The position numbers and the translations under genes are program-made. Shown piece by piece: positions 4,610 through 31,776 of a DNA stretch of 32,000 nucleotides (the stretch's first letter is position 1; each line of letters starts with the position of its first letter). The notes beneath the pieces are model-generated. The model was not told the origin of the DNA, ran no database searches, and saw nothing but the letters and a program-made list of their open reading frames with translations. Origin of the DNA: Propionibacteriaceae bacterium (GTDB lineage Bacteria > Actinomycetota > Actinomycetes > Propionibacteriales > Propionibacteriaceae); contig JAIRQE010000006.1 of NCBI GenBank assembly GCA_031256725.1, positions 150,601 through 182,600 on the forward strand, read 5' to 3'.

Positions 4610-5129
4610 TCGTTCTTGCATGGTGAACGTGCAGGTAGTGTGGGGAAAATGATATGCTGAGGATATCTGCGAGAGATGCATTATGGGGCTACCAATTCGA
4701 AAGCATGACTCAACCCTGCTAAGGCTGTTCAAACTGTTTCTGTTGGAGGGGTAACCACTGATCCTGAAGCAATGGTCGAAACACGAAGTTTTCATTGGAT
4801 GAGTCAGGGCATTGGGACTCGGTACCACCAGGTTATGAAAGTTGGGAAGATCCTCAGGGAACTCAAACCAGCCAGGATGAAGTCATCTTGGATCACGGCG
4901 TCTATCAGTGGACTATAACGGACACGATCATAACTGTGGCCGGTGGTAGTGATCTAAGTGAAACGCAGATGGACCCGACCATCCCCAGGTTCTATCCGTC
5001 CAAGTCGATGAGTCTCGCCAATGTACAGTGACAGGCGATCTCAGCCTTGTGTCCAAGGCGGGAGTCACTCTCAATGGAGGTGGAACTTGCAGCTCAACCG
5101 TGACTCACCTGGCATAGACAGATGACAGT

Positions 5130-5161
5130 ACCCGCCTGAAATACGCTCAAATCAGGCGGGT
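5130..5161. terminator. Stem-loop, possible bidirectional terminator
   Basis: Perfect 10-bp inverted repeat: acccgcctga (5130-5139) and tcaggcgggt (5152-5161). The loop is 12 nt. It sits in the 740-bp intergenic region upstream of the ABC operon. Confidence 0.4.
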
Positions 5162-5353
5162 TCAGTCTGTATCTAAGATAACGGATAGGTCACAATCTGT
5201 GGGTTTGATTGCTGGCCTAGAGTGAAATCGCGTACGATTACTATGTGCCTAAGGCTGACCATTTCGGGTAAACAATCGCCCACCATTGTGATCCACAAGA
5301 TCACTGTTATGGGTCAGGGCACTTACATCCCTTCGAACAAAGGAAAATGACAC

Positions 5354-6652
5354 ATGCGTCATGGCAAGATCATCGCTGCACTTTCTGCAGCGGCACTCGC
5401 GCTGGCTGGACTAGCTGGCTGTGGTTCTGGTGAGCCCACAACTCCATCAACTGATGCTCCGGTTGATGGCCCTTCCGGCCAGTTGGAGATTTTCTCCTGG
5501 TGGACCGCTGGCTCTGAGGCTAATGGCCTCGAAGCTCTGGTTGGTGTCCTCGGCGAGAAGTACCCGAACATTGAATTCGTGAACAACGGCGCCGCTACTG
5601 GTGGCGGTTCCGGCAAGGATGTCCTTCAGACTCGTATGGCAGGCGGCCAGCCGCCGGACTCTTTCCAGGTCCACGCCGGTGCTGAGGCTCAGGATTACAT
5701 CACTGCTGGTCAGTTGCAGGACGTTTCGAACCTGTATGACGAGTTCGGCTTGAACAACGCTTTCCCACAGGATCTCGTTGACCTCCTCACCAAGGATGGC
5801 AAGATCTACACAATTCCTTCCAACGTGCACCGTTCCAATGTGATCTGGGCTGATGTGAAGGCACTTGAAAAAGCTGGCCTGAGCACAACTGATGCTTACT
5901 ACGACTCCATGGAGTCCTTCATCGCTGCTCTTGAGACCGCTAAGGCTGCTGGCTTCGAAGCTCCATTGTCCATGGGTATGACCTGGACCCAGGTTCACCT
6001 CCTTGAGACTGTTTTGATGGCTGACCTCACACCTGTGCAGTACAACGGCCTCTTTGATGGTACGACCGATTGGACTGGCGCTGAGGTAAAGAAGGCCCTT
6101 GAGGACTTCGGTAAGCTCATGAGTTACACCAACGCTGACCGCGATAGCTTGGATTGGGAAGAAGCATTGGCTATTGCTCTCGATCAGAAGGCTGTCTTCA
6201 ATGTCATGGGTGACTGGGTTCCTGGTGCACTCGATGCCCGCAACCTCGTTGACGGCACCGATTACCTGTGGGCTCCTTCCCCAGGTACCGATGGTGTCTA
6301 TGGCTTCTTGGCTGATTCCTTCGGTTTGACCACTGGTGGTCCTAACCCGGATGCTGGCAAGGCTTGGTTGGATGTCATCTCCTCTGCTGATGGCCAGACG
6401 GCCTTCAACAAGGTGAAGGGTTCGATCCCGGCTCGTACCGATATCGATCTCAGTTCCTTCTCCGACTACCAGCAATCTGCTTCGAAGTCCTTCAAGAACG
6501 ATGTGATCGTCGGTTCCATCCAGCATGGTGCAGCTGCAACCATCGCACAGGGCAACGCAGTCAACGCTGCAGTGTCCAAGTTCACAACCTCACCGATGGC
6601 CGAAGCCAATCTCGCCACATTGCAGGCGGAGCTGGCAGCAGCCTTCGCATAA
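5354..6652 (+). CDS. Sugar ABC transporter substrate-binding lipoprotein (family-1 solute-binding protein)
   Basis: 432 aa. It has a lipoprotein signal with a lipobox (LAGLAG-C-GSG), an AAGGA RBS upstream, and is followed by two MalF/MalG-type permease genes. Confidence 0.9.
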   Translation: MRHGKIIAALSAAALALAGLAGCGSGEPTTPSTDAPVDGPSGQLEIFSWWTAGSEANGLEALVGVLGEKYPNIEFVNNGAATGGGSGKDVLQTRMAGGQPPDSFQVHAGAEAQDYITAGQLQDVSNLYDEFGLNNAFPQDLVDLLTKDGKIYTIPSNVHRSNVIWADVKALEKAGLSTTDAYYDSMESFIAALETAKAAGFEAPLSMGMTWTQVHLLETVLMADLTPVQYNGLFDGTTDWTGAEVKKALEDFGKLMSYTNADRDSLDWEEALAIALDQKAVFNVMGDWVPGALDARNLVDGTDYLWAPSPGTDGVYGFLADSFGLTTGGPNPDAGKAWLDVISSADGQTAFNKVKGSIPARTDIDLSSFSDYQQSASKSFKNDVIVGSIQHGAAATIAQGNAVNAAVSKFTTSPMAEANLATLQAELAAAFA

Positions 6653-10373: not shown

Positions 10374-13300
10374 ATGAGCCGCATCGTTGACAATATCTCC
10401 CTGACATTGTCGGATGTGCTCAATGGGGTTCTTCCGTATTCATCGAGGCTTGATGCCTGTGTTGGTTACTTCAATCTGAGAGGGTGGCGCTCGCTTCGAG
10501 ACAGTATTGGACAGATGCAACCAGATGGCAGCGAAGAATCTCAAGGGTCCACGGTTCGTCTCCTTGTGGGGATGGCAGTCTCCACAGATCAACTAGTGCG
10601 ACAAGATCTTGAAAAAGGCACTCAGCGGATTGATCATACCTTGGCTTTGCGTCGTGCGGATCAAGCGGTACTAGGATTCGCCAAACAACTGACATGGGGG
10701 ACGCCAACATCCTTTGATGAAGCGGGTTTACGAGTACTGCGAAAAGACCTAGAAAACGGGCTTCTGACGGTGAAGTTTGCTGCGCGAGAACCGTTGCATG
10801 CCAAGCTTTATGTTGCACGTCTTGTGGGAGGACTCAGAGCATTTCATGCTGTGGTGGGATCATCCAATTTCACGGCGGCAGGGTTAAGCAAGCAAGGAGA
10901 ACTAAGCCTTGAAGAGACCGATGCTGAATTGACTGCTCAACTCGCACAGTGGTTTCAAGATCGTTGGGATGATCAGTATTCCATGGACATCACAAAACAG
11001 TTGATTGAAGTTTTGGAAGAGTCTTGGATTCGTGAAACCCAACCCAGACCATATTTGGTCTATCTTCGACTTGCCTACGAGCTTTCCCGGGATGCTCGTG
11101 CTGGGCTTACTTTGGATATTCCCAGTGATGTTCGCAGACTACTGATGCCTCATCAAGAGAGTGCGGTCAGGGTTGCTACGAAACTTCTCCAGAGAAAAGG
11201 CATTGCAGTTATTGGTGATGTGGTTGGTTTAGGAAAAACACTCACAGGTACTGCCATCGCAGCAACAACAGGTGAATCGGTACTTGTGATTGCTCCTAAG
11301 AACCTGACTCAAACATGGCAAGAACATCTTGAGCGTTTCCATATCCCAGGAAGAGTTATCAGTTTGAGTATGGTGGCAAAGGAATTGCCAGATTTGAAGC
11401 GATTCCGACTCGTACTCATAGATGAGTCTCACAATTTGCGTAATCGACAACGGAAAGCATGGGACGCGATCCACACATATGTCGACGACAATGACTGCAA
11501 AGTGGTTCTTCTGACGGCAACAATGTTTAACGCTCGCCATGAGGATATTGGTGGTCAACTTGGGCTTAAGATTCCTCTGGATCAACCGCTTGGTGTTCGA
11601 CCTGAAAGGCATATTGCCACTGTGGGTGCGCAGGCATTGGCAGCTAGAACGAATGGACGCCTTGACACACTCGCTGCCTTTGAACAGTCAGAGTTTAATG
11701 AGGATTGGCAGAGACTTCTCAGCGAATTCCTCGTACGCCGAACCCGCAGGTTCTTGGAATCCACATACGGTGTCACAGATCCCAAAACTGGTCATACGAC
11801 ACTGAGTTTCCCTAATGGCGAAAGCTTTCGATTCCCGAAGCGTATTCCTGAGGCATTGAATTACCAAGGTGGGCCACAAGATCCGAATGACCGACTAGCA
11901 ACTGAGGAGGTGTTCGAGTCCGTCGTGGGGCTCTCCTTTGCTTGCTATCAGTTGGGAGCTTATCTGGTGGATGATGTGGTGGCATTGGACAAAGAAGAGG
12001 AGGAATTGATTAATGACCTCCGGCGTTCAGTACAGACAGCAGCTGGTTTTATTCGCACGACGGCTTTTAAACGCCTCACCTCTTCTGCCCATGCTTTTAT
12101 TTTGACGATCACAAGGATGATAGCTCGTAATGCCGTTCTGGACTATGCATTATCTCAGAGGCTCCAAGTGCCCATGGGTAGTTTTTCTTATGGTTTCTTT
12201 GATGTCAACGATGATGATGATATTGATGATTCTCAAGAAGAAGCTGTACCCACAGGAGTGAACTGGTCAACCACTCAATGGCAGGGTAACGCACAACAAG
12301 CTTATGAGGCCTTGGACGCTTCCAATCCGAAAGGACTTCGTTGGGCTCGACCCGGATTGTTCAAGTCACATGAGGTTCTATCCAAAGTACGAGCCGACTC
12401 TGAGGTGTTACAGGGACTTCTCAATAGATATGGTACGTGGCATCCCGATCAGGACACCAAACTACGTGCCTTAGCTGATTTGATTGAAGGGCTTCCCCCA
12501 GATGAGAAGGTCTTGGTATTTAGTGAGTACAAGGACACTGTCGACTACTTAGCCAAGTATCTTCCAGACTATACGGATCGTTCCTTGGCGTCAGTCAGTG
12601 GGCAATCTAGTGACCCATTACGTGTTGCTCGCCGTTTTGCCCCTCGAGCGAATGAGGATATTGGAGGTCTCCCAAGTGGGGAAACTGAAGTTGATGTACT
12701 TATCACAACAGACGTTCTTAGCGAAGGACAGAATCTTCAGGATGCGCGCATTGTTGTGAATTGGGATCTTCCCTGGACAATCATCAAGATTATCCAAAGA
12801 GCTGGTCGTGTTGATCGCATCAAGCAAAAAGCGGAAACAATCCGGGTATTGTCATTCCTTCCACAAGGAGGAGTGGAGGAACAGATCAATCTTCGTAGAC
12901 GGTTAGTCAAACGCCTCAAGAATGCTCAGCAAATCCTTGGTGGCGATGAGCGTTTCTTCGATGATGATGACTCCAGTGTAGATATTTCTGGACTCTTCGA
13001 TGGTACGGCTGATCTTGGGGAAGAAGAAGGAGAGGTCGACGCCTCATCGTTTGCTTTGGGTATATGGGAACAGGCAAGTGAAGATGATCGGCGCGAGGCC
13101 TTGGATTTACAGGAAATCGTCTATTCCACAAAAGTCATTGACGAGGGTAATCCTTACGTCCTTACATACGGAAGAACTGATGCTGGCACAGACTTGTTGG
13201 TTCGAACAACTCAGTCTGATCTTTCTTTTATCACACCAATGGAAGCACTTCAGGAGATGGTGAGTGAGGTCTTCGAAACAGCCAGTCCGACCCTAGGTGA

Positions 13301-13709
13301 CCATCTGCAACACATTGGAAGAGCAGTAGATGCGATGGGGGAGCAAGTAGCCAAGAATACGGTTCTTCTCCACACAGGTTTACGGAAACGTCTCTACGAC
13401 TTTTTAACCAAACAATCTCAACGCATAGATCTTCCCACGCCCATCAACGCTCAGATGTGTCAGGTGATTGATGCAGTGACTGCCAACCCCATTAGAGAGG
13501 ATGTCAAGTTAGAGGTGTCTGGGATCTTAAGACAAGTCAGGCACCTTGGAGATGACAGTGGATTGCATAGGTTGCTGGCCCTTCATGAAGAGCATGCATT
13601 AATTGATGTTCGCGATTACGGTGCTGATCGGGTTCAAGTCATTACAGGCATGGGTTTCAATCCGGTGGCCATCTCAAGTAGAGAAAAGAGTCCTCATTAT
13701 GACCAGTGA
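10374..13709 (+). CDS. PLD-family (HKD) nuclease domain fused to an SNF2/SF2 helicase-like ATPase
   Basis: 1111 aa with an AAGGA RBS 9 nt upstream. There is a single HKD motif (LHAKLYV...VGSSNFTAAGL, aa 141-170). SF2 motif I is GLGKT (nt 11226-11240) and motif II is DESH (nt 11421-11432). The C-terminal lobe has TDVLSEGQNLQD and QRAGRVDR. Confidence 0.9.
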   Translation: MSRIVDNISLTLSDVLNGVLPYSSRLDACVGYFNLRGWRSLRDSIGQMQPDGSEESQGSTVRLLVGMAVSTDQLVRQDLEKGTQRIDHTLALRRADQAVLGFAKQLTWGTPTSFDEAGLRVLRKDLENGLLTVKFAAREPLHAKLYVARLVGGLRAFHAVVGSSNFTAAGLSKQGELSLEETDAELTAQLAQWFQDRWDDQYSMDITKQLIEVLEESWIRETQPRPYLVYLRLAYELSRDARAGLTLDIPSDVRRLLMPHQESAVRVATKLLQRKGIAVIGDVVGLGKTLTGTAIAATTGESVLVIAPKNLTQTWQEHLERFHIPGRVISLSMVAKELPDLKRFRLVLIDESHNLRNRQRKAWDAIHTYVDDNDCKVVLLTATMFNARHEDIGGQLGLKIPLDQPLGVRPERHIATVGAQALAARTNGRLDTLAAFEQSEFNEDWQRLLSEFLVRRTRRFLESTYGVTDPKTGHTTLSFPNGESFRFPKRIPEALNYQGGPQDPNDRLATEEVFESVVGLSFACYQLGAYLVDDVVALDKEEEELINDLRRSVQTAAGFIRTTAFKRLTSSAHAFILTITRMIARNAVLDYALSQRLQVPMGSFSYGFFDVNDDDDIDDSQEEAVPTGVNWSTTQWQGNAQQAYEALDASNPKGLRWARPGLFKSHEVLSKVRADSEVLQGLLNRYGTWHPDQDTKLRALADLIEGLPPDEKVLVFSEYKDTVDYLAKYLPDYTDRSLASVSGQSSDPLRVARRFAPRANEDIGGLPSGETEVDVLITTDVLSEGQNLQDARIVVNWDLPWTIIKIIQRAGRVDRIKQKAETIRVLSFLPQGGVEEQINLRRRLVKRLKNAQQILGGDERFFDDDDSSVDISGLFDGTADLGEEEGEVDASSFALGIWEQASEDDRREALDLQEIVYSTKVIDEGNPYVLTYGRTDAGTDLLVRTTQSDLSFITPMEALQEMVSEVFETASPTLGDHLQHIGRAVDAMGEQVAKNTVLLHTGLRKRLYDFLTKQSQRIDLPTPINAQMCQVIDAVTANPIREDVKLEVSGILRQVRHLGDDSGLHRLLALHEEHALIDVRDYGADRVQVITGMGFNPVAISSREKSPHYDQ

Positions 13710-16700
13710 AACACCAATGATTCCCAACCTTCAGAACCTCTACTCATCTGGTGGCTTGAGCGACATGTTCATTGATGGACTTGGCTGGGAAGCCCCTAGT
13801 GAATCTGTGCCTCCTGTAGTGATACATGAGTCCATCTACTATCCCCAGTTAGCGTCCTGTCTTCGAGGTTTTAGGATTTACCAGGTTCCTTGCAGCGAGC
13901 GTCCCACGCGTACTCTCATGCGTGATATTGATGCTCAGCTGAGACTTTTATCACCCGAGCGGATGGCTGTATTTGAGGGGCCAAATGAATGGTTTTGGTA
14001 TTGGCCTCGACATTCAAGTTCGGGGACAACAACATACGAGTCCATAGAAACACGCCCAGCATTGTTGCCTACTTTTCTTGCCCAGCGATTGTGTGGGTTG
14101 AAATTCACAGCCAGTGATCATCGAAATGGGATTACTTTGACTGATGTCTGTAATAGAGTCCACGGACATTTTGATGCAAGTAATGTCACAGCTGCGTTCT
14201 ATAGACAGTTCCAAGTAGAACATCAGCATCTATCTGAGGTGATCTTCGGGATTCCTGAGTCCGAGAATACCGGATACGCCACAACGTTATTGAACAGGAT
14301 GATGTTTATTTACTTCCTTCAGAAAAAGGAATTTCTTAATGAGGACATGAACTATTTAGAAAACACTCTTGCCGCTGTTCAAGAGATCCGTGGGCGTGAC
14401 CACTACTACACTTTCTATAGAGATGCCTTGCTTCCATTATTCTTCAATAAACTCAATGACAGTGATGGAGTGATCAAGGATCCGGAAATCCTACGAATCT
14501 TGGGTGATGTTCCCTATGTGAACGGAGGTATCTTCGGAAGAACAGATCTTGAGGAGGAATTCGCCGAGGAACTGTCGATACCTGATGAGGCCTTTGAGCG
14601 AATCCTTAGGTTTTTTTCGCAGTTCAATTGGCATCTTGATACGCGACCTACGGGAAATGATAGAGAGATCAATCCGGAAGTCATAGGTTATATCTTTGAG
14701 CAGTACATCAACTTTGCCGCTTCTGGGCAAAGAGAGAATGGCGCTTATTACACACCACATGATGTGACGTCATACATGGTTGCGCAGACTGTGATTCCTC
14801 GAATCATGGATAACCTTAGCAACCTTGATCATGCTTTCCGCCTTCTTATCACCAATCCTGACCGATATATACAGCCCATGATGCTTCATGGGTGGAGTGA
14901 GGCTGGACAATGCTGGGAACAGGTTCCTGAAAAGCTTCAGATCGCCTGGGATGGAGATCCGCTCACGTGGGTGCTGCTTGATGATGCAGAGCCTGATCCA
15001 TTGGTGAATCTTCCTGGAGAGACGTGGGTAGAAACCTTCCATCGACGTGAACGTGTTGAAGCATTGCGGAGCCGGATGAGTTCTGGAGAGATACGAGAAG
15101 TCAACGACTTGATTACGGATAATCTCAATACGCAGTTGCTACTCACCGATTTTATTGATCTCATGGATGATCCCAGTCATCTTGCTGAGCTTTTTGACGA
15201 TCTAACTGGGTTGAGTGTCTTTGATCCGACTTGTGGTTCGGGAGCCTTCTTATTTGCTGCACTAGAGGTTTTAGAGGATGTTTATGCCCATATCATTGAT
15301 AATGCTCTGGGTAGAGGTGGGGAAGCAGTTGAGTCGCTGCTAACGCAAGTGAAGGCTCAACCGAGTTCTCGGTACTTTATTCGAAAGCATATCGCGATTC
15401 GTAATCTCTATGGTACTGACTTAATGCCAGGAGCCATAGAAACAGCCAAGTTAAGGATATTTCTTTCATTAGCCGCTTGCGTGGATACACGAGAAGAACT
15501 TCAACCGCTGCCAGATCTCGACTTCAATCTTAAAGCAGGCAACTTAGTGGTCGGATTCAAAGATGCGGAGGATGTTTATCGCGTAGGAGGAGATCTGTTT
15601 ACGTTTACTCGCCTTGATGATCTCGTTCCCCGTATTGACAAATACTCTGAGCTATATTCATCTTTCGTTGAAAGCATTGAGTTGAATGATCATTCCTCGG
15701 TTGAGATTAAAGACCAATTGCGTCGCATGGAGGCAGAATTACGAACTGAGTGCAATGGCATCTATGCTGAGATATGTGGTTTCATAGATGACGGAGACAC
15801 ATGGGTGGATCAAGCTAGGCCATTTCATTGGTTTTGTGAATTTCCGGCCATTGTGCAAAAGGGTGGTTTCGACGTAATTATCGGCAATCCGCCGTATATC
15901 CGGATGCCTAGAGGCTCAGAACTGCAAGAATTATCCATTGGGTACGAAACTAGAAACTGCCCTGATTTCTACGCTGTCTGCTATGAGCGGAGCCTATCTT
16001 TATTACATGACTTCGGTCGCCACGCTTTCGTGGTTATGTCCAACCTTGCGTTTGGTGACGACTTTCTAAGTCTACGAGCTCTCATTGCACGCAAAGGAGC
16101 GAGTGAATGGTGGAGCACTTACGGGAAAATACCGCAACCATTGTTTGATGGAGTAAAAGTAAGAAATACGATTTTAGTTCTTGGCCCTGGCTGCCCGCTC
16201 CGAATGGTCACTCGTCATCATATTCATGCTAGCATTCAGCGGCCATGGCTTTTTCCAACAATTGAGTTTGCTAGATCAGCAAGATTGGGAGATCTCTGGC
16301 CAATTCGCGGCGGTGTGGCAACATCAATACTAGAGAAAATCGCAAGTCTGCCGAATGACACTTCCCAAATGGGTAATGAATATCTTTACTTACGAAACAC
16401 GGGTGCATATTGGTTTCCAGTGTTATTAGGCCCAGCGCCTACCTTAGATATGGATTTTAATGTTATCGAGGAAGTCACCTCAGTCCTTAAGCCTTTTCGG
16501 TTGCATATTGACGAAGTAAGGCGCGATGTCGCCGCGATTCTTGGTGGGAAAATCGGTTATTTGTGGTGGACGGCTGTTGGTGATGACTTGAACTGTTGGC
16601 CAAGAGAAACCATAGTTCCTCGCGCGCTCGCGAATGTAGCGAAGATGAGCCTAGGCTGGCAAGATGCCGTTTCCAGCGTCATCAAAGCAGCAATAGAAAA

Positions 16701-16932
16701 CACAATCATTGTACAAAATGCTGGTAAGAACTACTTTAATATTCGGTGGAATAATGTTCGCGCATCGACGGACACCCTTGATAAACTTGCGTTTAATTCT
16801 GTCGGATTGAATTACTTGGACTGGCGCAGGCTTAATGTTCTTTATCGGCAAATGATGCGATCATCAGGCGATGGGCGAGGTCACTACGTCACCACTGAAG
16901 AAGCTAACAAATATCTTAACTGGGATGTGTGA
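13699..16932 (+). CDS. Large gamma-class N6-adenine DNA methyltransferase (Eco57I/TaqI-like catalytic core, PglX/DrmMI/Type IIG-like architecture) with a C-terminal specificity-type region
   Basis: SAM motif I is VFDPTCGSGAFLF (~15222-15240) and catalytic motif IV is GNPPYI (NPPY at 15886-15897). The upstream helical region has NWHLD, EVIGYIFEQ and AYYTPHDV. About 330 aa follow the catalytic core. The likely start is ATG 13699, which overlaps the helicase stop by 11 nt (alternative ATG 13717). The listed ORF start at 13603 lies inside the helicase gene. Confidence 0.85.
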   Translation: MTSETPMIPNLQNLYSSGGLSDMFIDGLGWEAPSESVPPVVIHESIYYPQLASCLRGFRIYQVPCSERPTRTLMRDIDAQLRLLSPERMAVFEGPNEWFWYWPRHSSSGTTTYESIETRPALLPTFLAQRLCGLKFTASDHRNGITLTDVCNRVHGHFDASNVTAAFYRQFQVEHQHLSEVIFGIPESENTGYATTLLNRMMFIYFLQKKEFLNEDMNYLENTLAAVQEIRGRDHYYTFYRDALLPLFFNKLNDSDGVIKDPEILRILGDVPYVNGGIFGRTDLEEEFAEELSIPDEAFERILRFFSQFNWHLDTRPTGNDREINPEVIGYIFEQYINFAASGQRENGAYYTPHDVTSYMVAQTVIPRIMDNLSNLDHAFRLLITNPDRYIQPMMLHGWSEAGQCWEQVPEKLQIAWDGDPLTWVLLDDAEPDPLVNLPGETWVETFHRRERVEALRSRMSSGEIREVNDLITDNLNTQLLLTDFIDLMDDPSHLAELFDDLTGLSVFDPTCGSGAFLFAALEVLEDVYAHIIDNALGRGGEAVESLLTQVKAQPSSRYFIRKHIAIRNLYGTDLMPGAIETAKLRIFLSLAACVDTREELQPLPDLDFNLKAGNLVVGFKDAEDVYRVGGDLFTFTRLDDLVPRIDKYSELYSSFVESIELNDHSSVEIKDQLRRMEAELRTECNGIYAEICGFIDDGDTWVDQARPFHWFCEFPAIVQKGGFDVIIGNPPYIRMPRGSELQELSIGYETRNCPDFYAVCYERSLSLLHDFGRHAFVVMSNLAFGDDFLSLRALIARKGASEWWSTYGKIPQPLFDGVKVRNTILVLGPGCPLRMVTRHHIHASIQRPWLFPTIEFARSARLGDLWPIRGGVATSILEKIASLPNDTSQMGNEYLYLRNTGAYWFPVLLGPAPTLDMDFNVIEEVTSVLKPFRLHIDEVRRDVAAILGGKIGYLWWTAVGDDLNCWPRETIVPRALANVAKMSLGWQDAVSSVIKAAIENTIIVQNAGKNYFNIRWNNVRASTDTLDKLAFNSVGLNYLDWRRLNVLYRQMMRSSGDGRGHYVTTEEANKYLNWDV

Positions 16933-23668: not shown

Positions 23669-24925
23669 TTGGTCATGATACAACATGTTAATGTCTCTCA
23701 GATCATAGATGCCGCCCCAGCCCGCGTGGTACTCACTCGTGATGGTGAAGGTACTCTCACAGATGCTGCCTTCGACCTCTCAGGGTTGCCCAGAGTTGAT
23801 GCGATGTTGACCGGTCGACCAGTGGTCGAGGTACCTGCTCTCGTGGAAAGGCTGTGTGGGATCTGCCCCCAGGCCCATCATTTGGCAGGAACACGAGCCC
23901 TGGAGGCCCTTTCAGGTCTCACGGACCTTCCCCCAACAGCAACGGCTCTTAGACGTCTGTTGCATTATTCGAGCGTGATCGCGATTCACATTGTGGGCCT
24001 GATTGTCACCGACCAGGCTGAGGCTTTGATTCTTAGACGTTTTGCGAAGGCGGGGATGACGGCTTCAGGGTCCCCAGGGCATTTTCCGGCCACGGCTGTA
24101 CCGGGTGGGGTTCTGGCCTTAGCAGATCCAGCAAAGGTTAAGGAATGTGTGGAACTTGTACCTGAGGCTTTGAGTGCGGCACTCAGGCTTGTGGAGCGCA
24201 GTCTTGGGGTACACGCGCCTCCAGACCATTTTGATGGCGCGGATCTTGCTCTTGTTGATGATCAGGGAAACCTTGACTTGTTTGGAATGGCGTTGAGTGC
24301 GGTTTCCCCGGACGGCGGATCTGTTCTTGATCGGATGGGGCCCGAACTCTGGGATGAGATCGTGGCCGAAGCAGTGCCAGGGTCCTCAGCACCCAAGCCT
24401 TTCATCAGGGCTCTGGGAGCCTCATCGGGTGCCTATCGTGTGGGGCCTGTGGCGCAGTTGCGGGTTGCACAGTTAGCAACCCCTCAGGCGAGCGACTACA
24501 AGGACCAATGGCGTACACAGGGTCATGGGGCTGCATGTGCACGGGCGATCATCATTCTTCACTGTGTTGAGACTATTGTGGATCTCTTGGCGAACCCCGA
24601 TCTTGTCACGGGTACTCTCATCACCGAGTGGTCTGCGAATCTGTCTCAAGCGATTGGGGTTGGTTGGGTTGATGGTGCTCGCGGGCTCTTAGTACATCGG
24701 TATGAAACGACCGAGGATGCTCGTGTGAAGCAGGCCACCATTTTGACTCCTACAGCCCAAAATGAACCCTGGTTGGGTGGACTTCTTAGGCGGGCTGCTC
24801 AAGGGTCTGGAAAGTCGGTTCAGGTCAGTTTGGAGGATGCTATCCGGACGGTAGACCCGTGTTTGCCCTGTTCGTCTGCTCCTGCTGGCACAATGGATCT
24901 CGTTGTTGATACAGTTTCGACATAA
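23669..24925 (+). CDS. Short [NiFe] large-subunit paralog (HupK/HoxV-like putative maturation scaffold)
   Basis: ~416 aa. It has an N-terminal RLCGICPQAHH and a C-terminal DPCLPCSS, with no His and no cleavable tail. The listed start is TTG 23669; ATG 23675 is more likely. Confidence 0.65.
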   Translation: MVMIQHVNVSQIIDAAPARVVLTRDGEGTLTDAAFDLSGLPRVDAMLTGRPVVEVPALVERLCGICPQAHHLAGTRALEALSGLTDLPPTATALRRLLHYSSVIAIHIVGLIVTDQAEALILRRFAKAGMTASGSPGHFPATAVPGGVLALADPAKVKECVELVPEALSAALRLVERSLGVHAPPDHFDGADLALVDDQGNLDLFGMALSAVSPDGGSVLDRMGPELWDEIVAEAVPGSSAPKPFIRALGASSGAYRVGPVAQLRVAQLATPQASDYKDQWRTQGHGAACARAIIILHCVETIVDLLANPDLVTGTLITEWSANLSQAIGVGWVDGARGLLVHRYETTEDARVKQATILTPTAQNEPWLGGLLRRAAQGSGKSVQVSLEDAIRTVDPCLPCSSAPAGTMDLVVDTVST

Positions 24926-25277: not shown

Positions 25278-25916
25278 GTGAATATGACTTTGGTTGCTCC
25301 CTTGAAGGAGAATCGAACCTTGAATTGTTGGATATTGGAACAATCTGAACTTGTGGCCTGTGTGTTCATGCCCATTGAGGATTCGGGAGGAAACTATCAC
25401 AGGTGGGCTGAACTACTAGGTGAACCAATGTCATTTAAGGAAAAGGGATTATTCGATTCGCGGATACCTGAGCTCAAAGAGTCAGGGCATTTTGGATGGC
25501 CCGAAGGGTGGACCACTAGGAAAACCGCAAGTACTCTTGCTCATACGCTTGAGACGATCACTGACGAGGGAGTTCTTTTCGTGGTGGCTTTCTCGCAGAT
25601 CTATGATCGTGATCTTTCGTGTGAACCGACTCTGCCGTGGAACGAAGAGCCATCCCGGTCGTTCATTGACATTACAAGAGCTGACCTCTTCGTGTGCGAT
25701 AATCTTGATCTCGTTGCTGGGGCGAGTATCGAAGAAGATCAGTACCTTCCAGTAGGGATATGGCCTGTGGACTTCTCCTGGGCTTTGACTTCCGTACTGT
25801 ATGAGGATAAGTGGTTCTTCTCTGGATCCAGGGCGGCATATTCGGTTTTGAAAGAGGCTGGCCTCGAAGTGGCAGAGGTTCCTTATACGTGTTATGTGTG
25901 TCACGGGGACGTGTAA
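25278..25916 (+). CDS. Hypothetical protein
   Basis: 212-aa ORF with plausible coding character but no motif I recognise. Its last ~6 codons and its stop lie inside the left arm of the inverted repeat at 25896-25922. Confidence 0.45.
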   Translation: MNMTLVAPLKENRTLNCWILEQSELVACVFMPIEDSGGNYHRWAELLGEPMSFKEKGLFDSRIPELKESGHFGWPEGWTTRKTASTLAHTLETITDEGVLFVVAFSQIYDRDLSCEPTLPWNEEPSRSFIDITRADLFVCDNLDLVAGASIEEDQYLPVGIWPVDFSWALTSVLYEDKWFFSGSRAAYSVLKEAGLEVAEVPYTCYVCHGDV

Positions 25917-26316: not shown

Positions 26317-27165
26317 TTAGTGTTGCATTCCAGCTTCTGCTAGAACGCTGTCATGGATAGCATGGTAGATGGTTTCTGCTTGGGTTGGTGGGATGTCTCC
26401 GCAGTATTGGTAGAGACGCTGATGGTTGAACCAGTTCACCCATTCAGCAGTAGCAAATTCGACCTCGTCCACGTTTTTCCAGGGCTTCCGGGGTTTAATG
26501 AGTTCAGTTTTATACAACCCATTCACAGTTTCGGCTAGCGCATTATCATAGGAGTCACCGACCGAGCCCACTGACGGAGTAATACCCGCCTCGGTCAACC
26601 GTTGCCCATACATTAACGACGTATATTGACGACCACGATCCGAGTGGGCCACGAGGGCTGTCAGGTCACCGTGGCCTTCATGGTCTCGAACCCAGATCGC
26701 ATGCTCACAAGCATCCAGAACCAGGTCAGTAGTCATTGTTGTACTTACCCGCCATCCCAAGATTCTCCGGGCAAACCCGTCAATCACGAATGCAACATAC
26801 ACCCATCCAGCCCACGTGGACACATACGTAATATCGGCAACCCAGAGTTGGTTCGGAGCAGTCGGGGTCAACATTCTCTCCACATGATCAACAGCGACCT
26901 CATGGGAATCATCTGGGATTGTTGTGCGATGCGGACTGCCTCGATGAATCCCGTGAATACCCATGTCAGCCATGAGTCGTTCCACAGTGCACCTCGCCAC
27001 AGGGATGCCTTCCTTATTCAGGGTTAACCAGATCTTCCTGGCTCCATACACCCGATAATTCGCATCATAAACACGACGAATATGCTCACGCAGAACCATG
27101 TCTCGCTGCTCACGAGGGGTGGGAAGCTTGTCCCGCCATTCATAATACGTGGACGGGGCAATCCG
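26317..27165 (-). pseudogene. IS3-family transposase OrfB (DDE/rve integrase core), disrupted from its N-terminal segment by an extra frameshift
   Basis: DDE region: WVADITYV, HSDRGRQYTS, NALAETVNGLYKTE. The post-slippage frame ends at a TGA (27140-27142), while the DDE frame opens only after a TAG (27166-27168). The junction reads SEHGIA|IAPSTYYEW, which is consistent with one extra base near 27163-27166. Confidence 0.7.
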
Positions 27166-27261
27166 CTATCCCATGCTCACTGAGCACTCGACAGATCGGT
27201 TCGACCCCCCACCGTAAACCATCTGAATCATGGTCACGATATTCACCAATGAAATCCACGA

Positions 27262-27585
27262 TCACAGTCCTGGCCGGTCTAACTCGGCCGCAAAAAAAGC
27301 TGATGCCGCTTTCAGGATTGCGTTCGCTCGACGCAGTTCAGCATTCTCTCTTTTCAACCGTTTCAGCTCAACTGATTCCTCACTGGTCACCCCAGGGCGT
27401 TGACCAGCATCAACCTGGGTTTGACGCACCCAACGAAGCACTGCCGCCCCAGAACCCACACCCAGCAATTCAGCAACCCTGTTCACGGTAGCGGTATCCG
27501 AAGAGTAATTATCCCTCGACTCCTGAAACATCCTCACAGCACGGGCCCTCAACTCAGGAGAATACCTATTATTCGCACTCGACAT
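27262..27585 (-). CDS. IS3-family transposase OrfA (HTH/leucine-zipper part)
   Basis: 107 aa: YSPELRARAVRM ... ELKRLKRENAELRRANAILKAASAFFAAE. This is the typical IS3 OrfA ending at the frameshift window. Confidence 0.9.
   Translation of the reverse strand: MSSANNRYSPELRARAVRMFQESRDNYSSDTATVNRVAELLGVGSGAAVLRWVRQTQVDAGQRPGVTSEESVELKRLKRENAELRRANAILKAASAFFAAELDRPGL
27292..27298 (-). other. Putative programmed -1 ribosomal frameshift site (U UUU UUU on the transposase strand)
   Basis: A7 on the + strand is T7 in the orfA frame (GCT TTT TTT GCG). The -1 frame continues as ...TVIVDFIGEYRDHDSDGLRWGVEPICRVLSEHGI, which is the typical N-terminus of IS3 OrfB. Confidence 0.6.
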
Positions 27586-27660
27586 GACTCAAACCTTCCT
27601 TCCAAATCAAACAGAGTCAAGTCTCCGGACTCGCCGGGGGGATTCATTCCGGGGGATTCA

Positions 27661-27916
27661 GCGCGCTGGGTCGTCCGTCGCGTTGACTGTAGAACAGTGG
27701 CGTGGAGTGGTTGTTGCGCTGGTCAGAGTGGAACTCGTTGAGGTAGCCACGCAGGTGGTCAACGGTTTTCCTCATGAGTGGCATGTTCCTGGTTTTCCCG
27801 CCTTTACCAGACGAGTCAAAAATGTTGCAGCAGCCATCCCAGAACATACATGCTCCGATAAGTAGTCCAGGATTTTGTCCGCACCCCCACAGGGCAACTT
27901 CAACTTGACAAAACAT
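27661..27916 (-). pseudogene. Tyrosine recombinase (phage-integrase family) internal fragment, truncated by the IS3 insertion
   Basis: ...FDSSGKGGKTRNMPLMRKTVDHLRGYLNEFH...TPLFYSQRDGRPSA matches the GKGxKxRxVPL...L..YL...PLF segment of integrase catalytic domains. The reading frame runs straight into the IS terminal repeat. The N-terminal domain and the C-terminal HxxR/Y region are absent. Confidence 0.6.
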
Positions 27917-28012
27917 AGATTGATACTAGAGTGTTAATAGTTTTAGAATTTTCGTTCAAAGGTTGAACGTATTCTGGAGACTGTATTGAAAACCCATCCG
28001 AATGGAGGAAAA

Positions 28013-28309
28013 ATGAAAAACCGTATTGTCCCCGCCATGGCTGCTGCTTTACTTGCCTTTGGTGGAATAGGGCTCGTAGCAGCTTCTGAGGCCACTGCGC
28101 CTGAGGCACAGGCGGCAACCTGTTATTACAGCAATCTCTCTACATCTAGAGTCTTAAATGTAAATTGCACAGCAGGTGGTGCCTATGGATACAAGAATTC
28201 AGCTAATGCATCCACGGGTTACCGAGTAGGAGCTTGGGTGTCACCGGGATACTATTCCTATAACCCCAACCCAGTTTGCTATGCCTACCCTACTATGGTT
28301 AAGAGATGA
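28013..28309 (+). CDS. Small secreted Tyr/Gly/Asn-rich protein with three Cys (bacteriocin-like candidate)
   Basis: ATG 28013 is preceded by GGAGGA (28004-28009); the listed TTG 27986 is less likely. It has a Sec signal peptide (MKNRIVPAMAAALLAFGGIGLVAASEATA) and a mature part of ~69 aa. Confidence 0.7.
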   Translation: MKNRIVPAMAAALLAFGGIGLVAASEATAPEAQAATCYYSNLSTSRVLNVNCTAGGAYGYKNSANASTGYRVGAWVSPGYYSYNPNPVCYAYPTMVKR

Positions 28310-28330
28310 TAGTGAGTTTATCAACCATTA

Positions 28331-29029
28331 TTGGATAATTCAGCCCAGTGTACTATGTCTAAAATTAAGAAATCTATAAATGTAGTTGGCGGGGATCCTA
28401 TCGACCTCGCTGTTAAGACTAGCTGGATTAGTGACTCTGTGGTCCACCACTTCGTTAAAAAATCCACGAGGAGAAGTTCTCGCCTGGGTCTTGTGCTGGT
28501 GGTGGGCCTCAGTGTCATGGTATTGGCAGCTTGTTCAACCATTGACAAAACTGCTACTCCACAGTTTACTGGCCCGTGGGGCGATATCTATGCTTACTAT
28601 TATGAGACATCAGAAAGTGAGTTAGGTCGAGAAATTTTGAGTGATGGAGTTATCACTGATATGGAATTTCAGGAGGCAATGCTGGAAATCGAGCAGTGCT
28701 ATCTGAATGATGGATTTAGGGTTACATATGATCCGTATGGATTCGAAACTGTTGAGAGTATTGGTGGAACGCAGGATCCACTTGAAGAGATGGGGAAATG
28801 TGCTTTTGCCGATGGTGGAGTCGTTGTTTTATACTACCAGATAGCTCGAAATCCTAACCATATGAGTGAGGAGGAACTGTTGGCTGAATGTCTCGTTCGA
28901 ATAGAAGTTGTCGAGCCAGGGTTTACCGCACAGGACTTTGAACGTGCTATGCAATCGGGAGTGATACCTTGGGATTCAACTGATCCACGTGTGACGGAGT
29001 GCTATAAAAACCCTTTGGACCTATTTTGA
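28331..29029 (+). CDS. Putative lipoprotein of unknown function
   Basis: A basic stretch (KKSTRRSSR), a hydrophobic core and a lipobox (VLAA-C-S). The start is uncertain: TTG 28331, ATG 28355 or GTG 28439. Confidence 0.6.
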   Translation: MDNSAQCTMSKIKKSINVVGGDPIDLAVKTSWISDSVVHHFVKKSTRRSSRLGLVLVVGLSVMVLAACSTIDKTATPQFTGPWGDIYAYYYETSESELGREILSDGVITDMEFQEAMLEIEQCYLNDGFRVTYDPYGFETVESIGGTQDPLEEMGKCAFADGGVVVLYYQIARNPNHMSEEELLAECLVRIEVVEPGFTAQDFERAMQSGVIPWDSTDPRVTECYKNPLDLF

Positions 29030-29044
29030 TGAGAAGATCTAGTT

Positions 29045-30106
29045 GTGAATACTGCAAAGCAGACTGATAACAGTACGCACACTAAGCGTCGATGGGTGCC
29101 ATTGTTCATAGTGGTGCTTACTGGTGTCATGGGGATGGGAGTCGCTGCTGGGTCATTGTTCTTTCCGATTTCCACGCCTGCTCCATTGGAATCCTCGGGA
29201 ATTATCGCAGAGGCCCCCGTTGACATCGGTGGGTTCTCGGATTCACGCACTATTTCGCTGCTGGTGTCTACTGTCGAAGGTGCTCACCTTAAGGTAGCAA
29301 GATCTGGATTGGTTACTGCATCTTCATGTTCTCCCGGTGTAACCATAAAATCAGGTTCTACGATGGTCAGTATAGATGGGCAACCAATTTTAGCTCTTGC
29401 CACCAGTCAGCCACTATGGAGAGAATTTCCAGTCGGTTCAACTGGCCGTGATGTGGATGTCTTGTTTTCTGCCTTGCGGGAGTTGGGTATTGAGATTAAA
29501 GGGCAGACTGTTACTAGGTCTGTGCTGCGATCATATGAAGGCCTACTGAAATCGATTGGTGTGTCAACAGCCATTACCAGTATCGAACCATCGGACTTAA
29601 TGTGGCTTCCAGCAAGTGAGGTTACTGTCTCTTCATGTGATCTCCATATTGGTGGTGAGATATCTGGACGTACCACCGTTGCCACCTTACCTCCCACAGT
29701 TTCATCGATTACACTCAAAGAAGTTCCTGGGGATCTAACTCCTGGGGACCGAATGCTCATTATTGATGGGATAGAAATTCCAACAGATGATCAAGGTAAC
29801 GTTATTGCGCCTGAGGCGCTCAATCTCATCTCCCAAACCCAATCATTCGTACGCGCAACTACTACCGAGTCAGAAGTCATCATTACTGCTTCATGGTCTC
29901 TAGTAGAACCTGTTGAGTCCTGGACGATTCCCCCAAGTGCAATTGTTGTAGGAAAAACAGGGACATGCATCGTTGTGGATGGAAAACCCACTGCTATTAC
30001 GATTGTTGGATCTCAGTTAGGACAAACATTCGTGGTGCCGCAAGACTCATCTTTGCGCCCAAACATGGTGTCCCTGTCTCCTTCTGATCTGTCTCAATGT
30101 GAGTGA
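29045..30106 (+). CDS. Membrane-anchored HlyD/MacA-like periplasmic adaptor with a peptidoglycan-binding-like insert
   Basis: N-terminal TM (WVPLFIVVLTGVMGMGVAAG). The pattern IKSGSTMVSIDGQPILAL...PLWREFPVGSTGRDVDVLFSALRELGI is that of actinobacterial adaptor proteins. The C-terminal beta-rich segment is IPPSAIVVGKTGTCIVVDGKP. Confidence 0.55.
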   Translation: MNTAKQTDNSTHTKRRWVPLFIVVLTGVMGMGVAAGSLFFPISTPAPLESSGIIAEAPVDIGGFSDSRTISLLVSTVEGAHLKVARSGLVTASSCSPGVTIKSGSTMVSIDGQPILALATSQPLWREFPVGSTGRDVDVLFSALRELGIEIKGQTVTRSVLRSYEGLLKSIGVSTAITSIEPSDLMWLPASEVTVSSCDLHIGGEISGRTTVATLPPTVSSITLKEVPGDLTPGDRMLIIDGIEIPTDDQGNVIAPEALNLISQTQSFVRATTTESEVIITASWSLVEPVESWTIPPSAIVVGKTGTCIVVDGKPTAITIVGSQLGQTFVVPQDSSLRPNMVSLSPSDLSQCE

Positions 30107-30109
30107 ATC

Positions 30110-30712
30110 ATGCATGTAAAACTGCACGGTATTGCTCACCAGTTTCCTGGCCAACACTTCCTTTTTCGTGAACTCAACACCACTTTACTCACTAATCGTG
30201 TATACGCATTAGTGGGTTCCTCAGGTTCCGGCAAGAGTACTCTATTATCGATCCTAACTGGGTGGCTTAGACCCACAGAAGGCAGTATTTCCTATGAGGG
30301 TATCGTTCGTATTGGGTGGGTATTTCAAAATCCTCATGGGGTTCCGCATCGAAGTGCGATTGATCATGTGATTGTGCCGCTGCTTGCTCGAGGGTTATAT
30401 CGTAATGATGCGAAAAAGCGAGCCGGTGAACTCCTTTCTGACTTTGATTTGGCACATATTGCAGATCGTCCATTCTGCGCCTTGTCTGGAGGGGAAGCGC
30501 AACGGCTGATGCTAGCTCGGGGTATTGCTGCTAAACCTCATTTGTTTCTTGTAGATGAACCGACGGCACAATTGGATACTCATACTGCACAAACAGTGAA
30601 CAAGACTCTGCAGTCACTTGCTCGAATGGAAACCATTGTCGTGGTTGCAACCCATGATCCTTGCACCCGAGACTCCTGTACGGACATCATTGATCTTAGT
30701 AGGTTCTCATGA
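30110..30712 (+). CDS. ABC transporter ATP-binding protein (short, MacB/FtsE-like)
   Basis: Walker A GSSGSGKST, signature LSGGEAQR, Walker B LFLVDEPTAQLD and H-loop ATHD, in only 200 aa. Confidence 0.9.
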   Translation: MHVKLHGIAHQFPGQHFLFRELNTTLLTNRVYALVGSSGSGKSTLLSILTGWLRPTEGSISYEGIVRIGWVFQNPHGVPHRSAIDHVIVPLLARGLYRNDAKKRAGELLSDFDLAHIADRPFCALSGGEAQRLMLARGIAAKPHLFLVDEPTAQLDTHTAQTVNKTLQSLARMETIVVVATHDPCTRDSCTDIIDLSRFS

Positions 30713-31776
30713 GTTGGGTTTTTGGAGAAGCCATTCGGAATCTGGTTACGGGTACAACTAAGCCCATTCGGCTGGTCTTTCTTTTTGTGCTTGCCTGCAT
30801 TATTCCCACTATGGCTGATCTTCTCACTGTACAAAGCCTCATGCAGGAAGCCCTTCGCTATCGTGACTCAGGAGCAGCCACGATTACTGTTCTAAGTCCT
30901 GGTCGAATAAAGGGAGATGTTTGTGACGATCTCTCGCAGGTTCCCTCTGTGATAGCATCTGGAGCCATACGACATGATGATAACTCCTATTCCAGTGTTG
31001 CAATGCCGAATGGGGTTATTGCATCCTATTCCATCACTGAAGGTGCCTTGTCCGTGTTCCGTGTTGACAATATGAATGAAGGTGGTGTCGCTATATCCTC
31101 GACGGTTGCCTTTACTCTTGGCATTGCACCTGGTGATTCTCTAGTTTTGACCACTGGAAGAACCACAGTTCGAGGTGTATATGACTGGCCCAATGATGGG
31201 AGAAGACCCGGATTCGATTTTGCTATGCTCATACCTGTGCCCACAAGTGAACTCTTTGATGAGTGTTGGGTCACTACCTGGCCAATGACTGAGAGTGTTC
31301 AAACACTACTGAATTTGTCTATAGATAACTCTGCCGGTGACACGAACGCGAGAACAGAATACTCGCAAGTAAATTCGGCTTTGGGCAAGGAATTCACTGG
31401 TACCGAAAGGTTCAATCACCGAATGACTCAGTTCGCTTCAGTAATAGTTTTTGGGTTGACAGGGCTCCTGAGTTTTGTCATGGTCTGGTCCCGACGACTC
31501 GAATTATCATCTGCACAACACGTAGGTGTGACATGGTGGGCCCAACTAACTCAACTATTAGTCGAACACGGAATATGTTTCCTAGTAGGGTCGGGAATAA
31601 TCCTCGGTATTAACGCAATGATTATTGCTTCCATAGTCCCTGTGGATACCGAAGGCCTGTGGAGCATCGCATGGAGAAATCTAGCTTATGCCCTATATGG
31701 GTCTCTAGCTGGGTTAGTAATGACCTCTTGCATGATTACCCCGAAAAGGCTGTTCCGATATTTCAAGGTGAGATGA
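30709..31776 (+). CDS. FtsX/MacB-type ABC permease
   Basis: The start overlaps the ATPase stop (ATGA). The topology is one N-terminal TM, a ~200-aa extracytoplasmic domain and three C-terminal TM helices. Confidence 0.7.
   Translation: MSWVFGEAIRNLVTGTTKPIRLVFLFVLACIIPTMADLLTVQSLMQEALRYRDSGAATITVLSPGRIKGDVCDDLSQVPSVIASGAIRHDDNSYSSVAMPNGVIASYSITEGALSVFRVDNMNEGGVAISSTVAFTLGIAPGDSLVLTTGRTTVRGVYDWPNDGRRPGFDFAMLIPVPTSELFDECWVTTWPMTESVQTLLNLSIDNSAGDTNARTEYSQVNSALGKEFTGTERFNHRMTQFASVIVFGLTGLLSFVMVWSRRLELSSAQHVGVTWWAQLTQLLVEHGICFLVGSGIILGINAMIIASIVPVDTEGLWSIAWRNLAYALYGSLAGLVMTSCMITPKRLFRYFKVR

Follow-up and report, generated by a model that had tools for sequence, protein, structure and literature searches.

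Lactococcin 972 (Lcn972) is a Sec-dependent, lipid II-binding bacteriocin whose neighbouring ATP-binding cassette (ABC) genes are assigned to immunity (PMC4055356, PMC8538875). It is released without a MacAB-like pump (PMC4055356), and Lcn972-like genes have been reported in Bifidobacterium and P. acnes (PMC4289311). Propionicin T1 of Acidipropionibacterium thoenii is an active actinobacterial bacteriocin with a downstream ABC gene that is thought to give immunity (PMC5756557). Here we describe a five-gene cassette within a stretch of 32,000 nucleotides (nt) from a Propionibacteriaceae bacterium (contig JAIRQE010000006.1; the whole stretch is called the window below). In this cassette, a gene for a small Sec-dependent precursor is followed, in order, by genes for a lipoprotein, a MacA-like adaptor, an ABC ATPase of 200 amino acids (aa) and an FtsX/MacB-like permease with four transmembrane segments (4-TM). 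Judged from sequence and gene context, we consider it rather likely that these five genes form a self-contained unit that both makes a bacteriocin of a new Sec-dependent family and protects its producer, a lipoprotein and an ABC pump conferring the immunity.

The Lcn972 locus of Lactococcus lactis (lcn972-orf2-orf3; PF09683, TIGR01653, TIGR03608) is similar to this cassette in that it encodes a Sec-dependent, unmodified precursor of a cationic beta-protein of about 65 aa, and in that ABC-transporter genes lie behind a leading structural gene. The window protein also resembles the Lcn972 family in having a Sec signal and a mature part that is unmodified and about 65-90 aa long. In contrast, the sequence and Foldseek searches described below detected no similarity between the two proteins, and Lcn972 has no Cys whereas the window protein has three. 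The transporters differ as well. The original prediction, made from the sequence of the window, had suggested comparing the ATPase with the Lcn972-group model TIGR03608; it scores 109.6 bits against a cut-off of 254.85, which is far below that cut-off and argues that the transporter is not of the Firmicute Lcn972 type. The Lcn972 group has a large 7-TM permease (TIGR01654) where the window has a 355-aa 4-TM protein; the window locus has a lipoprotein and a wall-binding adaptor besides.

In size, charge, Sec dependence and possession of an ABC neighbour, the closest characterized actinobacterial analogue is propionicin T1 (P0042, UniRef Q9F6C4), whose precursor of 96 aa has a Sec signal and yields a cationic, Cys-containing mature protein of 65 aa. 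Membership of the same family was considered and rejected, the hhalign probability being 24% and the alignment covering only the signal peptide and the first Cys loop. The mature part of propionicin T1 gave an E-value of about 0.2 with the hidden Markov model (HMM) of the window family, in an hmmsearch of a two-sequence database. The sole copy with context on record, a homologue 79% identical to propionicin T1, has a kinase and a response regulator upstream and an unrelated ABC ATPase (28% identity) downstream, without lipoprotein or adaptor.

MacAB-type pumps give protection from secreted toxic peptides or carry a small disulfide toxin out of the cell; the MacAB-TolC system of E. coli exports the Sec-translocated, disulfide-bonded enterotoxin STII from the periplasm. 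Like the window cassette, these pumps (YknWXYZ of B. subtilis, Spr0693-0695 of S. pneumoniae and E. coli MacAB-TolC) have a separate ATPase and a 4-TM permease with a large extracytoplasmic domain; their membrane-fusion-type adaptor has a probable counterpart in the window. However, the window sequences are extremely divergent from them, the window module includes a dedicated Cys-rich lipoprotein, and half of the sampled members of its adaptor family differ from MacA in carrying a peptidoglycan-binding domain between the lipoyl halves. The logic proposed for the window also resembles that of LanI and LanFEG (NisI/NisFEG), where a bacteriocin-binding surface lipoprotein is combined with a membrane-clearing ABC pump. 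However, LanFEG is an ABC transporter of another type, it acts on a modified peptide, and homology to the window genes is not expected. The principle of immunity by lipoprotein plus ABC pump is mentioned in PMC4055356.

The small secreted protein and its family

All five open reading frames (ORFs) of the cassette were recovered on the plus strand where the original prediction had placed them (Table 1), and the gene anatomy described there, including the peptidoglycan-binding segment of the MacA-like adaptor, held up. The genes are separated by 21 nt (counted to TTG 28331), 15 nt and 3 nt, and the last two overlap by 4 nt. For the small gene, ATG 28013 is the likely start because a GGAGGA motif precedes it and homologues start with MKNR or MKKR. 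The 98-aa precursor read from this start carries the clear Sec signal that had been predicted, ending in AQA; this A-x-A is invariant in the 8 closest homologues (alignment A1) and nearly so across all 27 (A3). The mature part contains 3 Cys, 11 Tyr, 5 Lys/Arg and no Asp/Glu (isoelectric point 9.3). Its three Cys and three N-x-S/T sequons (NLS, NCT, NAS) were as first described, whereas the length was not, since the sequence given as ~69 aa counts 64. N-glycosylation of the sequons was considered and given no weight because only N-L-S/T is conserved across the family.

We regard the small gene as real, as homologues of 51-72% identity have the same genes beside them although their wider genomic contexts differ. 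It belongs to a very rare family: homologues form 8 clusters among 5.8 billion, and of 1.84 billion representatives searched with a profile 22 matched, 19 of them small proteins. The small protein had no match in Pfam or NCBIfam at E<=1, and the family profile (A3) had no match among PDB sequences at E<=10. The earlier suggestion of a new family is thus borne out by the lack of Pfam and NCBIfam matches, and on sequence grounds we take the window protein as the founding member of an unannotated family.

All 27 aligned members have a signal peptide ending in A-x-A, and a first Cys lies no more than a few residues from the cleavage site. The next Cys comes 12-19 residues past it (14 in most members); both are invariant and probably form a disulfide. 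Shared motifs are GAY[GA]Y and G-x-W-V-x-x-G-x-x-S-x-N, and the third Cys, ~90% conserved, lies inside a C-terminal C-[YWF]-x-x-P-x-M-V. This residue could be a free thiol, form an intermolecular disulfide (dimer) or provide a link to the Cys-rich lipoprotein. A lipobox-like AAGC in P0003 and P0008 was rejected as a lipoprotein signal, since the family conserves the A-x-A and Thr stands at -1 in most of its sequences. With 59-75 aa, a median net charge of +5 and ~15% aromatic residues, the mature domain resembles known Sec-dependent bacteriocins in size and chemistry.

The fold was predicted with AlphaFold. A run with only the 8 closest homologues was useless (predicted local distance difference test score, pLDDT, of 45); after addition of 19 more distant homologues, giving 27 sequences, the mature domain was modelled at pLDDT 96-98 as an all-beta domain of 5-6 strands, with the signal-peptide part below 50. 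Foldseek returned 153 PDB matches to this model, none at E<=0.001 and the best at E=1, and no significant match in BFVD. A faint resemblance to Lcn972 motifs had been proposed, to be followed up by structure prediction and Foldseek; neither the confident model nor the sequence searches bear it out. There was no PF09683 match at E<=1, the mature-domain profile aligned with nine actinobacterial Lcn972-like proteins at an hhalign probability of 4.9%, and no Lcn972 structure was among the best 50 of the 153 Foldseek matches (the Lcn972-type beta-sandwich is PDB 2LGN). The best local hhalign alignment places the G-x-W-V-x-x-G-x-x-S hairpin of the family on a W-containing hairpin of the Lcn972-like proteins, and the same G-x-W-V-x-x-G hairpin aligns to a W-containing hairpin in three further families that occupy the corresponding position elsewhere (see below); none of these alignments is significant.

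The four-gene module and its variable slot

Checking whether small-protein homologues co-occur with the transporter set had been proposed at the outset, and every homologue with enough context is indeed linked to it. In each family member with usable context the small gene is directly followed by the lipoprotein gene, in varied genomic neighbourhoods. The two genes are adjacent even where the pair is inverted or relocated (L010, L064, L098), which suggests that they travel as a unit. The closest named relative of the module is in a Propionibacteriaceae metagenome-assembled genome (52% identity); a scan of metagenomes of the Joint Genome Institute (JGI) gave only 2 loci.

The lipoprotein start is uncertain (TTG 28331, ATG 28356 or a later GTG). 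In its family (alignment A5) the lipobox Cys is invariant in 16 homologues, with four further invariant Cys and an NPxN motif; it has no match in Pfam or PDB. The adaptor of the window, searched by itself, gave no significant Pfam match. The profile of 20 adaptor family members (A4) has lipoyl/biotinyl domains at profile positions 61-109 and 178-222, peptidoglycan-binding domains at 117-165 and a match to MacA (4dk0, E=0.0034); PF01471 is present in 10 of the 20 (best E=2.9e-12). By these matches the adaptor is probably of the membrane-fusion type, with a split lipoyl-type domain and a peptidoglycan-binding-type insert that is degenerate in the window copy. Presumably the alpha-hairpin of MacA would sit where the wall-binding domain lies, between the lipoyl halves. 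The ATPase motifs are intact (Walker A GSSGSGKST, signature LSGGEAQR, Walker B LFLVDEPT and the H-loop), and its top NCBIfam matches are AztA, FtsE and LolD, all NCBIfam matches being below their cut-offs. Hydropathy places the hydrophobic segments of the permease at about 14-47, 241-264, 282-317 and 327-345. Its window copy matches MacB_PCD (PF12704) at E=0.003, with 18.4 bits against a cut-off of 27, and has no FtsX and no NCBIfam match. FtsX (PF02687) is matched by 6 of 20 family members (best E=6.9e-6), and the only PDB matches of the permease profile (A6) are the MacB-type structures 5gko (E=0.046), 5xu1 and 5lil, all weak (E 0.046-3). Together these profiles suggest that the protein is a very divergent type VII (MacB/FtsX) ABC permease.

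A scan with the permease alignment found the permease family in at least 141 GTDB species genomes, of which 80 loci with relatives of 28-38% identity were kept for context counts. All 80 are from Actinomycetota, with genera including Bifidobacterium, Leifsonia, Microbacterium, Agromyces, Nocardiopsis, Schaalia, Cellulomonas and Actinoplanes, and also Propionibacteriaceae. Module genes were detected on six-frame ORFs with HMMs built in this analysis. All four are present in 76/80 loci, the adaptor, ABC and permease genes are colinear in 78/80, and the lipoprotein gene is directly upstream of the adaptor gene in 71/80. Module proteins of the window score 2e-86, 6e-154 and 8e-155 on these HMMs, their own copies having been in the model-building set. 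By these profiles all four module genes of the window are present, homologous and in the same order as in the actinobacterial cassettes with a small Sec-signal gene upstream, which is Lcn972-like in some loci. Within two groups of loci (L016, L033, L038, L054, L056, L074, L077, L086, L089; L013, L060, L061), some, mainly from Bifidobacterium, have more than one lipoprotein paralogue, with three or more copies each in L054 and L086. In Schaalia and one metagenomic locus, lipoprotein genes lie downstream of the permease gene, and genes for response regulators of the LuxR type were seen repeatedly in the vicinity of four Bifidobacterium loci.

Immediately before the lipoprotein gene, in a position referred to here as the slot, there is often an ORF for a small Sec-signal protein of a family other than the window's. 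Lcn972-like proteins were found with an HMM in 17 of the 80 loci, and small Sec-signal proteins of other unannotated families, at least six further ones, in about 27 by a heuristic count. Nine of 10 tested Lcn972-like slot proteins score above the PF09683 gathering cut-off (30-49 bits, with 22 required), and the other slot families have no Pfam match. The largest of these, from Nocardiopsis, Actinoplanes, Frankia and relatives, has its gene at about 5000-5600 in most loci and shows the motifs YSYAEAHTE, SYAQHG, SGWY and ADAG; most of its members are net acidic, unlike the window's family. An N-terminal Cys loop and a G-x-W hairpin recur among slot families. A superfamily of the window's family with six other slot families is not claimed, with hhalign probabilities of at most 12%. 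As side observations, several further slot proteins share an N-terminal Cys-x(12-20)-Cys loop, and the mature part of the L029 slot protein would be only about 25 aa long.

Actinobacterial Lcn972-like loci, for example those of Microbacterium, Leifsonia, Labedella and Cellulomonas, have the same four-gene module as the window, in the same order, with a small Sec-signal gene directly upstream. They differ from it in that the small protein is of another family and the module proteins are only 29-38% identical. Since Lcn972-like genes occupy the slot of the same module, the module is a regular partner of Lcn972-family genes in Actinobacteria, and the proposed linkage of a small secreted gene to this transporter set extends to bona fide Lcn972-family genes. 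Our literature search found no paper that combines Lcn972 with FtsX-type transporters.

Specific partners are further suggested by the lipoproteins. Among 42 labelled loci, compared at a matched permease identity of 30-45%, lipoproteins are 34-36% identical within a slot family versus 28.5-29% between different slot families, while adaptors barely differ. After regression on permease identity, the lipoprotein excess was 5.5 points, reached by none of 2000 label permutations; the adaptor excess was 0.6 points, reached by 67 of 2000. This co-variation would fit a specific interaction between lipoprotein and small protein.

Table 1 Features of the window cassette and its flank, cassettes of small-protein homologues, and occupants of the slot
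Feature	Position or loci	Strand	Details
Small-gene ORF from TTG	27986-28309	+	107 aa
Small gene from likely start ATG 28013	28013-28309	+	98 aa
Shine-Dalgarno-like GGAGGA	28004-28009	+	3 nt before ATG 28013; read from sequence
Sec-type signal peptide	28013..28114	+	34 aa: MKNR, hydrophobic core, AQA motif (residues 32-34)
Mature protein and stop codon; candidate bacteriocin	28115..28309	+	64 aa, cationic, Tyr-rich, 3 Cys, predicted all-beta
Lipoprotein, unannotated family; candidate cognate immunity/binding protein	28331..29029	+	LAAC lipobox, Cys codon near 28533
Adaptor, membrane-anchored, MacA/HlyD-like	29045..30106	+	353 aa; family-profile matches
ABC ATPase	30110..30712	+	200 aa; PF00005 E=8.5e-27
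Permease	30709..31776	+	355 aa, 4 TM, ~195-aa extracytoplasmic domain between TM1 and TM2; hydropathy profile
Promoter-like pair, overlapping, sigma-70-like	27905..27949	+	TTGACA-16-TAGAGT and TTGATA-18-TAGAAT; 10/12 positions each; consensus match only
IS3-family element	26317-27916 region	-	orfA 27262-27585 (HTH_Tnp_1), orfB 26317-27099 (rve); Pfam
90-aa ORF (putative integrase scar)	27644-27916	-	tyrosine-recombinase-like GKGGKTRNMPL-type motif
P0007, 55% to window	L001-L003		102+216+336+200+354 aa, beside sugar-metabolism genes
P0003, 58% to window	L005		small, lipoprotein, adaptor (contig ends inside adaptor gene), beside qcr/sodA
P0004, 56% to window	L097		full cassette
P0006, 51% to window	L100		full cassette
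P0029, 40% to window	L010		small+lipoprotein pair inverted, beside adaptor-ABC-permease
P0005, 55% to window	L098		small+lipoprotein pair placed after permease
Slot: Lcn972-like	17/80 loci		15 directly upstream on same strand, 2 divergent (L020, L024); HMM built here
Slot: Nocardiopsis/Actinoplanes/Frankia family	L047, L051, L055, L057, L070, L071, L082, L085, L090, L044		10-11 loci
Slot: Bifidobacterium family	L072, L087, L091, L023		4 loci
Slot: three two-member families	L034, L036; L048, L068; L078, L092		6 loci
Slot: weak relatives of window's family	L035, L077		2 loci (L036 counted under two-member families)
Slot: singletons	L029 5547-5720; L064 5483-5821; L065 5228-5536; L093 5232-5612	- (L064)	4 loci
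Slot: no small secreted gene detected by heuristic	about 36/80 loci

Proposed function and alternative explanations

In the reading we favour, the 98-aa precursor would be exported by the general Sec pathway and cleaved by signal peptidase I after AQA. The small protein would need no dedicated exporter, because it has its own Sec signal. The released 64-aa protein, cationic, Tyr-rich, predicted to be all-beta and probably disulfide-stabilized, would act on the envelope of competing Actinobacteria. The producer would be protected by the four downstream genes, presumed to be co-transcribed: the surface lipoprotein would specifically bind or present the small protein, and the MacAB-like pump, made of wall-tethered adaptor, ATPase and 4-TM permease, would clear it from the membrane and push it outward through the wall. 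Where the module occurs without a small gene, it would then be an orphan immunity system. Diversifying toxin and immunity loci are expected to combine a conserved module with a variable slot, and it is this pattern that the comparison of loci suggests.

Several points weigh against this reading. The assignments of adaptor and permease come from weak family-level matches, the window copies being below the Pfam cut-offs. The co-variation test controls only partly for the shared ancestry of loci, homology to characterized bacteriocins (Lcn972, propionicin T1) was not detected, and three Cys, an odd number, are unusual in a secreted protein. In addition, the module is found in about 36 of the 80 loci without a detectable small secreted gene, and so can exist alone. 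The original prediction had named just such an occurrence as a sign of a generic efflux operon; the linkage holds for the window's own family but not for these loci, which would fit orphan immunity but also allow a more generic role.

Two-step secretion is an alternative, in which the MacB-type pump, with its peptidoglycan-tethered adaptor, would take the Sec-exported, folded small protein from the membrane surface and expel it through the thick wall and the lipoprotein would serve as chaperone or presenter. The MacAB-like architecture, the wall-binding domain in 10/20 adaptors and the co-variation of lipoprotein with small protein are all as such a route would have them. However, loci that keep the module without the small gene are easier to understand as orphan immunity than as cargo-less exporters, and Lcn972 is released without such a pump, its ABC genes being assigned to immunity (PMC4055356). 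We consider this explanation unlikely, with the qualification that under it the small protein could still be a toxin, and that export and immunity roles could coexist.

It is also improbable that the module is a generic pump for envelope stress or for resistance to antimicrobial peptides, like YknWXYZ or Spr0693-0695. The small protein would then be a non-toxic wall-binding, signalling or regulatory ligand, consistent with a module that is widespread and often without a small gene, with the exclusively MacB-type (and weak) PDB matches of the permease profile, and with the lack of toxin homology in Pfam, PDB sequences and Foldseek. Yet bona fide Lcn972-family bacteriocins occupy the upstream slot in many loci, and the slot content is hypervariable from one locus to the next, as is typical of toxins; moreover, the window cassette is without a regulator or two-component system, and the mature protein is strongly cationic with no acidic residues.

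It is very unlikely that the window protein belongs to the Lcn972 superfamily as a highly divergent member that shares its beta-sandwich fold and its target, lipid II: although it shares slot and accessory module with actinobacterial Lcn972 genes, is similar in size, charge, aromatic content and predicted all-beta structure, and has a hairpin that hhalign places on theirs, the Pfam and PDB-sequence searches described above gave no Lcn972 match, the hhalign probability was 4.9%, and no Lcn972 structure was among the best 50 Foldseek matches.

The favoured reading of the window as a bacteriocin cassette can be extended to the other loci. The four-gene module may be a general actinobacterial platform that marks a hypervariable toxin slot, filled by the Lcn972 family and at least seven unrelated, unannotated families, including the window's family with its PDB-unmatched fold and a co-evolving lipoprotein as specific immunity factor. 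We put this broader proposal forward tentatively.

Genomic surroundings and implications

The promoter-like pair lies within an AT-rich spacer 5' of the small gene. As had been noted before, the cassette is AT-richer than the hydrogenase genes, with 46-48% G+C against 52-56% over the [NiFe] hydrogenase region. It was also said to adjoin an IS3/integrase scar. The IS3 part was confirmed by HTH_Tnp_1 and rve matches; the integrase part did not go beyond the motif, as the 90-aa ORF had no Pfam match at E<=0.001. The low G+C content and adjoining IS3 element are consistent with horizontal acquisition, and together with the 90-aa ORF suggest an acquired island with the cassette at its edge. Viral contigs and plasmids were searched for relatives of the small protein and of the permease and gave none; there is no sign of phage or plasmid carriage.

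Elsewhere in the window, a low-GC stretch (45-49%) at 10374-16932 encodes a 1111-aa fusion of a phospholipase D (PLD) nuclease and an SNF2/DEAD helicase and, next and overlapping, a 1109-aa Eco57I/MmeI-type N6-adenine methylase; it resembles an island for restriction or defence. Behind the hydrogenase genes, a 418-aa ORF (23669-24925) matches the NiFeSe hydrogenase large-subunit model only across the first ~66 aligned residues. Between a hyp-like gene and the IS3 element lies a 212-aa ORF without a Pfam match (25278-25916).

Sec-dependent unmodified bacteriocins are poorly charted outside lactic acid bacteria, and mining tools rely on homology to Lcn972. In Actinobacteria, the accessory genes are better conserved than the candidate toxin, and if the module is indeed a platform for a toxin slot, it would be a genome-mining handle for several new bacteriocin classes. 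Should the window protein prove not to be antibacterial, the role of the module would need rethinking, including where it stands beside Lcn972 genes. If it is antibacterial, the bacteriocins would gain a new protein family and perhaps a new fold, together with a testable model of immunity by lipoprotein plus pump and a context-based route to further families.

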